Of a DNA stretch of 4,425 nt, positions 2,601 to 4,136 are shown piece after piece. The DNA lies in the IMG/VR virus record IMGVR_UViG_2667527959_000007; one strand, given 5' to 3'. Source of the DNA: a virus. Its lineage: Duplodnaviria; Heunggongvirae; Uroviricota; Caudoviricetes. A model generated the notes under the pieces. The model did not search any database, was not told where the DNA came from, and saw only the letters and a list, made by a program, of their open reading frames with translations. Positions within the stretch are counted from its first letter, which is position 1; each line of letters opens with the position of its first letter. A program made the translations under genes and the position numbers.

Positions 2601-2836
2601 GTCAGCACCATGGCTACTTTCTTTGCCAGCTCCGCTAATTCCTCGTCTTCAACACCCCACTCCAGCACAGCCAGAAGCATTCCCATTTTTGGGATGAAGC
2701 TGTCTTTCCATCGCGAAATTTGCGATTCATTAATCCCTAACGCGTCGGCAACCTTTCGCTGGCCACGTACAGCAATTCGATTCAGGATGTTGCTTGTAAT
2801 TGCATTCGCTTTCTTGCGAGTACTTGTAAGTTGCAT
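2558..2836 (-). CDS. cII: cII-like transcriptional activator (lysogeny establishment)
   Basis: 92-aa product [92 protein letters not shown] is clearly homologous to lambda cII (shared SQISRWK and [10 protein letters not shown] blocks) but divergent. ATG at 2836..2834 preceded by AAGGAAA. The ORF-track N-terminal extension is rejected in favour of this start. Confidence 0.85.
2562..2600 (+). terminator. Rho-independent terminator (plus strand only) ending the oop-like RNA
   Basis: GCCTCAA (2562-2568) and TTGAGGC (2585-2591) form a perfect 7-bp stem, followed by TTTTCTTTT (2592-2600). On the minus strand the stem is not followed by a U-run, so cII read-through is not terminated here. Confidence 0.6.
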
Positions 2837-2846
2837 ATGTAAGTAT
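2814..2846 (+). promoter_or_regulatory. PRE-like cII-activated promoter (repressor establishment), antisense to the cII start and cro
   Basis: TTGC-N6-TTGT (2814-2827) flanks the -35 position. It is followed 13 nt later by AAGTAT (2841-2846), the same spacing and -10 hexamer I recall for lambda PRE (TTGC-N6-TTGC, 13 nt, AAGTAT). It is oriented toward cI. Confidence 0.5.
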
Positions 2847-2915
2847 TTCCTTAGATAACAATTGATTGAAGGTATGCAAATAAATGCATACACCATAGGT
2901 GTGGTTTAATTTGAT

Positions 2916-2947
2916 GCCCTTTTTCAGGGCTGGGATGTGTAAGAGCT
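2916..2947 (-). promoter_or_regulatory. nutR N-utilisation site (boxA-like plus boxB hairpin)
   Basis: Minus strand reads AGCTCTTAC (boxA-like, 2947..2939) followed by GCCCTGAAAAAGGGC (boxB, 2930..2916; a 5-bp stem with a GAAAA-containing loop). This matches the known nutR architecture between cro and cII. Confidence 0.75.
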
Positions 2948-2955
2948 GGAATGTC

Positions 2956-3171
2956 TTAAGCGGCTTTGTGTTCCGGCGGGAACACGTCATCAAGACTTAC
3001 TTTTGCGCCTAACTTGTTTAGGCACTCAACAAGAGCACGGCATGTTTTAAGGTCTGGGAAGCGACGACCAGATTCCCAATGTCCGATAGCTCCCTGTGTG
3101 CATCCAACTGCCTTAGCAAGTGTTGTTTGAGAGATATTCAGTGACTCTCGATATTTTCGTAGGTTGCTCAT
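2956..3171 (-). CDS. cro: Cro-like repressor (helix-turn-helix, Cro/C1 type)
   Basis: 71-aa product MSNLRKYRESLNISQTTLAKAVGCTQGAIGHWESGRRFPDLKTCRALVECLNKLGAKVSLDDVFPPEHKAA. ATG at 3171..3169 preceded by GGAGGG. First gene downstream of the PR-like promoter, divergent from cI. Confidence 0.8.
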   Translation of the reverse strand: MSNLRKYRESLNISQTTLAKAVGCTQGAIGHWESGRRFPDLKTCRALVECLNKLGAKVSLDDVFPPEHKAA

Positions 3172-3197
3172 ATGCCCTCCATAGTAACCATGAAACA

Positions 3198-3226
3198 ATA
3201 ATACGATATGTACTTTTAGAATGCAA
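3198..3226 (-). promoter_or_regulatory. PR-like promoter driving cro, cII and the replication genes
   Basis: Minus strand: -35 TTGCAT (3226..3221), 17-bp spacer, -10 TATTAT (3203..3198). Predicted start near 3191, giving a short leader to the cro ribosome-binding site. Confidence 0.6.
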
Positions 3227-3273
3227 GCAAAAAATACATCTTGTGCATGGATGGTTTTAGTACAGAGCGTAAT
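3200..3273. promoter_or_regulatory. OR operator cluster: three candidate 15-bp sites (consensus ARTAC-N5-GTAYT)
   Basis: Sites at 3200-3214 (AATACGATATGTACT, overlapping PR -10 and spacer), 3233-3247 (AATACATCTTGTGCA, weaker) and 3259-3273 (AGTACAGAGCGTAAT, just upstream of the cI start, the OR3/PRM position). Centre-to-centre spacing is 33 and 26 bp. PRM itself could not be placed confidently. Confidence 0.4.
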
Positions 3274-3282
3274 AATAAGGGT

Positions 3283-3942
3283 ATGAAAATGAAATGGTAT
3301 GAACTGGCTAGATCCAGAATGAAAGAGCTCGGCATAACTCAAGAGAAGTTAGCTGAAGAGCTTGGTATGACGCAGGGTGGAATTGGTCACTGGTTGCGCG
3401 GATCTCGTCATCCATCTCTTGACGAGATTGGTGTGGTGTTTAAATACCTTGGTATTGATAACGTCTCATTCAACCACGACGGTACATTTTCACCTGTTGG
3501 CGAATACTCATCTGCCCCCGTTAAAAAACAATATGAGTACCCTGTTTTTTCTCATGTTCAGGCCGGGATGTTCTCGCCTGAGCTTAGAACCTTTACCAAA
3601 GGTGATGCGGAGAGATGGGTCAGCACAACCAAAAAAGCCAGTGATTGTGCGTTCTGGCTTGAAGTTGAAGGTAATTCCATGACCGCGCCAACAGGATCCA
3701 AGCCAAGCTTTCCTGACGGGATGTTAATTCTCGTTGACCCTGAGCAGGCTGTTGAGCCAGGTGATTTCTGCATAGCCAGACTTGGTGGTGACGAGTTTAC
3801 CTTCAAGAAACTGATCAGGGATAGCGGTCAGGTGTTCCTACAGCCACTAAACCCGCAATATCCAATGATTCCATGCAATGATAGCTGTTCCGTAGTAGGG
3901 AAAGTTATCGCCAGCCAGTGGCCTGAAGAGACATTTAGTTAA
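3283..3942 (+). CDS. cI: cI-type repressor with a C-terminal LexA-like self-cleaving (S24) domain
   Basis: C-terminal about 140 aa ([38 protein letters not shown]...GNSMTAP...FTFKKL...WPEETFS) contains the Ala-Gly cleavage site and the Ser and Lys catalytic dyad, and is nearly identical to lambda cI by recall. The N-terminal about 80 aa is a different helix-turn-helix domain. Start ATG at 3283 or 3289 (AAGGG at 3277-3281 favours 3289); the TTG at 3241 is rejected. Stop TAA at 3940-3942. Confidence 0.9.
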
Positions 3943-3972
3943 CAGCCTCACAACTCTAAAACACACAACAAT

Positions 3973-4002
3973 AACCCGACCTTAGCGTCGGGTTTTCTTT
4001 TT
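3973..4002 (+). terminator. Rho-independent terminator downstream of cI
   Basis: AACCCGAC (3973-3980), loop CTTAGC, GTCGGGTT (3987-3994), followed by TTTTCTTTTT. No rex-like genes intervene between cI and PL. Confidence 0.6.
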
Positions 4003-4021
4003 CCAAAATATAAACCCATTA

Positions 4022-4094
4022 AATACAAAGCGTTATAAAAAACTAATTATATTTAGAACATTTTGTATTGACTCGATAAAGTACAAATCGTACT
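4022..4094. promoter_or_regulatory. OL operator cluster: three candidate 15-bp sites of the same family as OR
   Basis: Sites at 4022-4036 (AATACAAAGCGTTAT), 4055-4069 (AGAACATTTTGTATT) and 4080-4094 (AGTACAAATCGTACT, the best palindrome, 6 of 7 symmetric pairs, overlapping the PL spacer and -10). The last is 13 of 15 identical to the PR-proximal OR site. Confidence 0.4.
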
Positions 4095-4096
4095 AT
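4068..4096 (+). promoter_or_regulatory. PL-like promoter driving N
   Basis: -35 TTGACT (4068-4073), 17-bp spacer, -10 TACTAT (4091-4096). Predicted start near 4103, where lambda-like leader sequence (ATCAGCAGGACGCACTGACC...) begins. Confidence 0.65.
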
Positions 4097-4136
4097 TTAG
4101 CCATCAGCAGGACGCACTGACCACCATGAAGGTGAG

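Follow-up and report, generated by a model that had tools for sequence, protein, structure and literature searches.

The stretch of viral DNA analysed here (IMG/VR record IMGVR_UViG_2667527959_000007; 4425 bases, hereafter the window) covers the early regulatory and replication region in a lambdoid phage or prophage and runs opposite to the lambda map. It is a natural mosaic in which N, nutL and nutR are of the lambda/434 type, the immunity module belongs to the VT2-Sakai family, the cII gene is of the HK620/P22 type and the replication module of the HK620/HK022 type. Identity to lambda changes abruptly along the window, and we consider it very probable that it consists of interchangeable lambdoid modules, the sharp breakpoints being the edges of short sequence blocks common to allele families.

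The gene order N-PL/OL-cI-OR-cro-nutR-cII-O-P, with divergent transcription from the operators, identifies a lambdoid early and immunity region on the basis of open reading frames (ORFs), Pfam domains and colinear matches to lambda, 434, HK620, VT2-Sakai and HK97. Every reading frame in the window is intact. The reference set comprised 14 loci: lambda, 434, HK97, HK620, HK542, CP-1639, VT2-Sakai, 933W, P22, 683R2 (vB_EcoP-683R2), Dewey and three E. coli prophages. For lambda, we used blastn and in-register match strings against NC_001416 (34500-41000), and change points were placed by maximum likelihood. Positions 56-2548 (replication) and 2592-2853 (cII) are of the HK620/CP-1639/VT2-Sakai type with 93-99% identity. 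The segment 2956-3942, from the cro stop codon to the cI stop codon, is 93% identical to a large VT2-Sakai group, while 2956-4112 is 98.4% identical to an O157:H7 prophage and 2834-4425 is 99.5% identical to phage 683R2.

Abrupt joints and the short blocks shared across them

Lambda-like sequence occurs in the window as islands, for which chance similarity is ruled out by blastn E-values of 1e-45 to 1e-62. These are the tR2 region at 1-60 (98%, 59/60; lambda 40625-40566), the linker before gene O at 2516-2548 (94%; lambda 38693-38661), the segment from the cII ATG to the nutR boxA at 2834-2946 (111/113; lambda 38362-38250), the cI hinge and C-terminal domain at 3532-3936 (94%; lambda 37637-37233), the terminator found after rexB in lambda at 3965-4000 (89%, 32/36; lambda 35834-35799), the PL leader with nutL at 4102-4196 (94/95; lambda 35583-35489), and the N ribosome site with the start of N at 4305-4425 (121/121; lambda 35394-35274). 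Divergence from lambda is unequal among them, with 0 of 121 positions differing in N, 1 of 95 in the PL leader, 2 of 113 in the nutR island and 27 of 408, mostly synonymous, in the cI C-terminal domain. The difference between 0-2% in the N and nut regions and 6.6% in the cI domain indicates that the islands have separate histories.

Four joints switch within one base from 27-46% identity on one side to 97-99% on the other. Reading along the window, identity rises from 46% to 99% at 2833|2834 (the cII ATG), falls from 99% to 41% at 2946|2947 (the nutR boxA), rises from 29% to 97% at 3531|3532 (the cI hinge) and rises from 27% to 99% at 4101|4102, one base before the predicted PL +1 (4103). An earlier note on this DNA (the original prediction) had proposed that the minus strand is lambda-like from nutR through the cII ribosome site and ATG (2837-2947) and leaves lambda right after the ATG. 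The measured island, 2834-2946, agrees with those coordinates within 1-3 nucleotides (nt), and the first base past the ATG already differs. Its further claims, that lambda-like sequence starts at about 4102 at the predicted PL +1, that the promoter and operators upstream are not lambda, and that another joint lies inside cI, were borne out as well: the operator side of the PL joint shows 27% in-register identity and lacks the lambda operators. Alignment with lambda and its lambdoid relatives confirmed that the segments named there are lambda-like and that identity changes in steps rather than gradually. Recombination at module borders, for which the original prediction counted at least three joints, is likewise supported; the count was too low, since at least 14 joints are present.

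A crossover can be placed neither "at the ATG" nor "at +1", because both parental families share blocks of 12-20 nt there. The breakpoints are the edges of short blocks common to both flanking sequence families, and the joints are intervals, not points. Such intervals were identified at the start of cII (2834-2853, 20 nt), the end of cro (2956-2967, 12 nt), the PL start (4102-4112 or 4102-4115, 11-14 nt), and the 5' side (4185-4196, 12 nt) and 3' side (4305-4317, 13 nt) of the N leader, where the lambda type is set against the 933W type. Together with a 33-nt block at 2516-2548, these five provide the short shared sequence at the joint that the linker model calls for.

On the minus strand, the 20-nt block at the start of cII, CATATGTAAGTATTTCCTTA (2834-2853), carries the cII ATG and ribosome site; on the plus strand it holds the 3' part of pRE as annotated in HK620. 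Homology to lambda, 434, phage 683R2 and prophage ET490 begins at 2834, and homology to HK620 stops at 2853. The pRE and the cII-binding site annotated in HK620 correspond to window positions 2813-2852 and 2813-2836, which puts the onset of lambda-type homology at the end of the cII site and the loss of HK620-type homology at the end of pRE. The cII protein and the binding site within the cII gene move as one unit, and the nut site moves with N.

A scan for exact 20-nt matches to this block in viral contigs and the reference loci returned 126 contexts among the matches listed. On the left, the flank is either lambda cII or HK620-type cII, and the main types on the right are lambda/434 nutR and HK620-type nutR. 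All four combinations are present, in 54, 16, 18 and 37 of the at least 126 contexts, the 18 having the combination of the window. The joint is not private to this sequence, as HK542, Dewey and the NRZ96052a prophage have the same cII joint. For PL, a scan with CCATCAGCAGGACGC found at least 120 viral contigs, in which the operators upstream and the nutL leaders downstream fall into dozens of types; most matches lie in PL contexts, as judged by inspecting clustered flanks. Among the matches listed, the PL operator type of the window is followed by the lambda leader in at least 13 contexts and by a VT2-Sakai-type leader in at least 3, a 434-like operator type pairs with at least 6 leader types, and the lambda-type leader stands behind at least 3 operator types. 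The flanks therefore reassort independently by the four-gamete criterion at the cII block, and by several operator-leader combinations at PL.

The two immunity borders were resolved in the same way. At the left border, the crossover interval is the PL transcript start at 4102-4115 on the plus strand, a C followed by ATCAGCAGGACGC; lambda homology starts at 4102 and 434 homology at 4099, while O157 prophage homology ends at 4112 and VT2-Sakai homology at 4115. At the right border, the interval is formed by the last 12 nt of cro (2956-2967, AAAGCCGCTTAA), which are identical in 434 cro: homology to the VT2-Sakai group and the O157 prophage begins exactly at 2956, and homology to 434 extends to 2967. 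The nutR island is 97.8% identical to 434 over 2834-2967 and lambda-type only to 2946, and this better match to 434 extends the island to the last three cro codons. Projected on lambda, the right and left borders fall at 38247 and 35583 in 434, 38250 and 35583 in the window, and 38255 and 35567 in HK97. The same two borders serve exchange in both directions, because 434 and the window join a foreign immunity module to lambda nut sites and HK97 joins lambda immunity to a foreign N and nut.

Comparison with the reference set yields 14 joints, seven of which are no more than 10 nt away from a start codon, a stop codon or a transcription start; only 7 of 100,000 random placements matched this. Other joints fall within genes, namely at the cI hinge (3532), beside the origin repeats of the O-type gene (1880) and within cII. 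These borders are met again in many phages, where the modules to the left and right differ.

Proposed exchange at shared blocks and competing explanations

We propose that lambdoid genomes residing in one cell, after co-infection or infection of a lysogen, would exchange modules by recombination inside the shared blocks or beside them. Recombinases of the phages, able to act on short or diverged homology, may assist the exchange, and selection would retain only recombinants that keep the repressor with its operators, N with the nut sites, and cII with its binding site. The blocks are probably held constant by overlapping back-to-back signals, which would be the cII ribosome site and ATG with the 3' part of pRE in one case, and a ribosome site and ATG with the oop promoter at 2516-2548 in the other. 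The cI C-terminal domain of the immunity module is an older lambda-like acquisition. Relaxed homologous recombination by Red/Rad52-like proteins has been described as a source of lambdoid mosaics (PMC2327257, PMC3945230); Red also promotes recombination of diverged sequences, and flanks of this kind accompany about half of lambdoid mosaics (PMC2327257).

Several points weigh against exchange at the shared blocks as the source of the pattern. Minimal efficient pairing requires 23-27 base pairs (bp) for Red-beta and 31-34 bp for RecA (PMC3945230). The blocks at PL (13-14 nt) and at the end of cro (12 nt) are below these minima, and targeted homologous exchange would therefore be inefficient there. 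The parental types are themselves mosaic extant phages, so the overlaps may partly reflect common descent of functional signals. The four-gamete result shows recombination at or near the cII block, not its frequency or the enzyme. Finally, illegitimate recombination followed by selection would give the same pattern. Module borders of lambdoid phages closely follow the borders of genes and sometimes of domains, and two explanations are current, conserved boundary sequences on the one hand and illegitimate recombination with selection on the other (PMC3233612, which cites Susskind and Botstein 1978 and Clark et al. 2001 for boundary sequences, and Juhala et al. 2000 and Hendrix for random joining with selection). 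The latter, applied to the window, holds that joints formed at random positions and were sorted by selection, the blocks being conserved for function only, and differs from exchange at shared blocks in the molecular step alone. We regard it as possible though doubtful. Besides being one of the two standard models (PMC3233612), it agrees with several shared blocks being shorter than the RecA or Red-beta minimum; selection alone predicts the clustering of joints at start and stop codons, and the within-gene joints at domain borders (the cI hinge and the origin region of O) fit the survival of functional hybrids only. The perfect identity over 12-20 nt at the cII, cro-end, PL and N-leader joints is what it fails to anticipate, since random joints are expected to share few bases, and the cII alleles on one side, about 50-68% identical, provide a diverged flank of the kind usable by Red.

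Two further explanations have far less to recommend them. If no recombination had occurred, the islands would be regulatory sequence under purifying selection and the neighbouring genes would have diverged gradually. The islands do hold functional elements (nutR, nutL, the cII ribosome site and the 3' part of the annotated pRE interval), and cII is a diverged true homologue of lambda cII (Pfam Phage_CII). However, four flank combinations occur at the cII block and several at PL, the PL operator region has random-level identity (27%) directly beside 99%, and identity within the islands is 98-100% across the spacers too, not just at known signals. Moreover, the cI C-terminal domain shows 6.6% mostly synonymous divergence and the N start none. 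Given the four-gamete result and an adjoining operator region that is no more like lambda than random sequence, conservation without recombination was rejected, and we judge it very unlikely. An artefact, in which several prophages were assembled into a chimera or the phage is a laboratory hybrid, might be suspected because no end-to-end match to the window was found in the phage and complete E. coli genome collections, the best being a prophage with 97% coverage and 97.8% identity. In contrast, every joint is seen in independent isolates, including 683R2 (UK), Dewey (Switzerland), HK542 (Hong Kong) and prophages from Germany, China and the USA, and the reading frames are all intact. A chimeric assembly was rejected given this recurrence of the joints, and an artefact of any kind is scarcely credible.

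Relation to known phages and significance

The closest classical parallel is imm434. Phage 434, compared with lambda, likewise has lambda-type N, nutL and nutR around a foreign cro-operator-repressor cassette; its left border is at the same nucleotide as that of the window (lambda 35583, one base before PL +1) and its right border within 3 nt. Unlike 434, the window has VT2-Sakai-family operators and cI N-terminal domain, the cI gene carrying a lambda-like C-terminal domain; its cII and replication genes are not of the lambda/434 type, and its N leader has a 933W-type insert. The window is the natural counterpart of lambda imm434 with another immunity specificity and with extra swaps in cII, the replication genes and the interior of the N-leader hairpin.

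Phages 683R2, Louie and Dewey and the prophages of ET490, NRZ96052a and O157:H7 strain 611 carry the same immunity module at 98-99.5% identity, but none of them reproduces the whole combination of the window. 683R2 and ET490 match from exactly 2834 and have a lambda-type cII, unlike the window. In Dewey and NRZ96052a an HK620-type cII is joined to a lambda-type nutR, as in the window; the replication module of Dewey is different, and NRZ96052a has an extra gene after cI and is without the 933W-type leader segment. The O157 prophage differs in its VT2-Sakai-type PL leader and nutR. HK620, CP-1639 and VT2-Sakai share the cII gene, the DUF2740 ORF, the O-type initiator and the DnaB-like helicase with the window at 93-99% identity. 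The nutR, cro, cI and N of HK620 are its own, and its homology to the window goes no further than 2853.

Sharp lambdoid module borders at gene or domain boundaries are long established, a textbook case with nothing new in it. The window adds one example to known lambdoid mosaicism and does not discriminate between the two models of its origin. It is a clean worked example of how short shared sequences, situated at the boundaries of genes, domains or transcripts, link lambdoid modules, and module borders resolved to the nucleotide aid prophage typing, including that of relatives of Shiga-toxin phages which share the immunity module. Beyond annotation the significance is small, and no new question is opened; only the invariant PL transcript start and the covarying hairpin before boxA, both described below, might merit a separate look.

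Signals and genes within the modules

PL is predicted on the plus strand at 4068-4096, with TTGACT at 4068-4073, a 17-nt spacer and TACTAT at 4091-4096. Its +1, A4103, aligns with the nucleotide at which the 434 record starts the pL transcript. In lambda it corresponds to 35582, which we take to be the PL start; the records NC_001416 and J02459 list no pRE, oop or PL start. The first 13 nt of the transcript, ATCAGCAGGACGC, are found with at most one mismatch in lambda, 434, HK97, HK620, P22, 933W and VT2-Sakai, and with two mismatches in the O157 prophage. Each lambdoid PL that was examined carries the block exactly or nearly so, regardless of the upstream operators and of the N/nut type that follows. 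Tentatively, this transcript start (+1 to +13) could have a function of its own, beyond being a trace of past recombination; it might act in promoter escape, stabilise the 5' end or help to assemble the antitermination complex.

The lambda-type PL leader (4102-4196, plus strand) contains a hairpin at 4122-4134 and nutL at 4136-4166, with boxA GGCTCTTAA at 4136-4144 and boxB GCCCTGAAGAAGGGC at 4152-4166. The small hairpin, which follows the PL block, ends 2-4 nt before boxA and keeps its position among relatives. Of 49 distinct leaders (loci L015-L134), 47 are predicted to form a stem of 4 bp or more; there are 26 distinct stems, which vary in a compensatory way (CACC/GGTG, CAAC/GTTG, CGGC/GCCG, GCCAA/TTGGC, GCCAC/GTGGC, GAGAC/GTCTC and GCGAC/GTCGC). 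No usable earlier description of a conserved PL start or of a hairpin before boxA was found in the literature searched, which centred on Franklin 1985 and the papers citing it. A search of the whole window against Rfam at E<=1 gave zero matches and no help in naming nut, oop or leader elements.

On the other side of the immunity module, the lambda/434-type nutR island (2834-2967, minus strand) covers the tR1 region, boxB, boxA, a spacer, and the last three codons and stop of cro, the names being taken from the lambda and 434 records. nutR itself lies at 2916-2947 on the minus strand, with boxB GCCCTGAAAAAGGGC at 2916-2930 and boxA AGCTCTTAC at 2939-2947. Both boxB sequences are identical to lambda. 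At its first base, boxA shows the only mismatch to lambda in the PL leader (4136), and the first base of boxA is also where the nutR island departs from lambda at its edge (2947): the nutR boxA is AGCTCTTAC versus CGCTCTTAC in lambda, and the nutL boxA is GGCTCTTAA versus CGCTCTTAA. This base is probably tolerated, because it is polymorphic among relatives, being C, G or T at nutL, with the nutR variant occurring in 9 of 85 contexts.

The N gene starts within 4305-4425 (plus strand), which holds the lambda N ribosome site and the first 29 codons from the ATG at 4339. With the boxB sequences and these 29 N codons as in lambda, the window carries a lambda-type N antitermination set, the remainder of N lying beyond the window. 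Between nutL and N, a 933W/HK97/phi80-type segment on the plus strand (4185-4317, the non-lambda part being 4197-4304) replaces the interior of the long N-leader hairpin; it is 97% identical to 933W and HK97 and 90% identical to phi80. The two arms that form the base of the stem (about 4183-4198 and 4303-4318) are retained and consist of sequences shared with lambda, and the window and lambda RNAs are predicted to fold into the same base stem. In lambda, this hairpin is presumably the RNase III site that modulates N translation.

The immunity specificity is that of the VT2-Sakai family. The lambda operator TATCACCGCCAGTGGTA has no match in the window with up to three mismatches allowed, and cI upstream of 3532 is 29% identical to lambda in register, which places the window outside the lambda immunity group. 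The OR region (3175-3288) contains non-lambda operator-like repeats at 3197-3216 and 3259-3279, and non-lambda operator-like sites in OL lie at 4022-4042, 4052-4069 and 4080-4100 on the plus strand. Repeats of the form AGTAC-N5-GTACT are common to both regions and are putative operators. The cI gene (3289-3942, plus strand; alternative start 3247) encodes Pfam HTH_3 and Peptidase_S24 domains, with a non-lambda helix-turn-helix (HTH) domain and, from 3532, a lambda/HK97-like hinge and S24 domain. In the C-terminal domain, 27 of 408 nucleotides and 3 of 136 amino acids differ from lambda, and the whole gene is 93% identical to VT2-Sakai and 98-99.5% identical to the O157 prophage and 683R2. The cI joint is old and inherited rather than an event of this lineage, because the lambda-like C-terminal half belongs to the whole VT2-Sakai immunity family. 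cro (2956-3174, minus strand; 71 amino acids, Pfam HTH_3) is of the VT2-Sakai immunity family. As far as sequence features can tell, the LexA-like cI with HTH and S24 domains, the small HTH protein Cro and the repeated operator-like sites at OR and OL appear to make up a lambdoid repressor system.

Behind cI, a terminator scan identified a terminator at 3965-4000 on the plus strand (stem-loop 3973-3994), identical at 32 of 36 positions to the sequence just downstream of lambda rexB. The rex genes are absent between cI and this terminator, and only about 30 nt (3943-3972) separate the cI stop codon from it. Relatives carry other cargo at this spot, namely rexA-rexB in lambda, hkaS in HK620, orf22 in VT2-Sakai and, in the NRZ96052a prophage, a 1-kb ORF inserted between 3936 and 3973. 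Because the cargo differs among relatives, the spot acts as an insertion point for accessory genes.

The cII gene (2558-2836, minus strand; 92 amino acids, Pfam Phage_CII E=9e-45) is an HK620/P22-c1 allele, 93-96% identical to HK620, HK542 and CP-1639; its 5' end is 46% identical to lambda in register. It is a true but diverged homologue of lambda cII. Within the gene, TTGC-N6-TTGT at 2814-2827 fits the consensus of a cII site and is a predicted site, and HK620 and 434 annotate a cII site and pRE at equivalent positions. We take AAGTAT at 2841-2846 to be the pRE -10. Joints inside cII were located at 2566-2592 and, against Dewey, at 2654|2655. The patch 2567-2591 resembles P22, unlike HK620, CP-1639, HK542 and the NRZ96052a prophage. 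At the 3' end of cII (2549-2600), the plus strand has a terminator-like hairpin, GCCTCAAAACTGTTGCAGCAGTCTTGAGGC then TTTTCTTTT, which is probably the oop terminator. The CP-1639 match breaks off at 2876, which was rejected as a module joint because it is due to an insertion of IS629; in CP-1639 (locus L007, 5820-5844), IS629 lies in the nutR-cII spacer and the immunity region has been removed.

The 33-nt linker at 2516-2548 carries, on the minus strand, the ribosome site and ATG of the DUF2740 ORF (2377-2523, minus strand; Pfam DUF2740) in the window and of gene O in lambda. On the plus strand it presumably overlaps the oop promoter and start. With up to three mismatches it is present in 12 of the 14 reference loci, the 933W locus stopping short of the region and Dewey giving no match. 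One neighbour is gene O in lambda and 434 or the DUF2740 ORF in most others, the opposite side has differing cII 3' ends, and many matches to the window end at 2548. The replication module is 98-99% identical to HK620, CP-1639 and VT2-Sakai. It comprises the non-lambda O-type initiator with origin repeats (1485-2384, minus strand) and the DnaB-like helicase (59-1495, minus strand; Pfam DnaB and DnaB_C). Identical 30-nt direct repeats lie inside the O-type gene at 1897-1926 and 1963-1992, at the position of the origin annotated in HK620, and 683R2 and HK542 lose homology to the window beside them, at 1880. The lambda-like tR2 terminator region (1-60) ends at the helicase stop codon and is 100% identical to 434, and HK620 annotates tR2 at the equivalent place.

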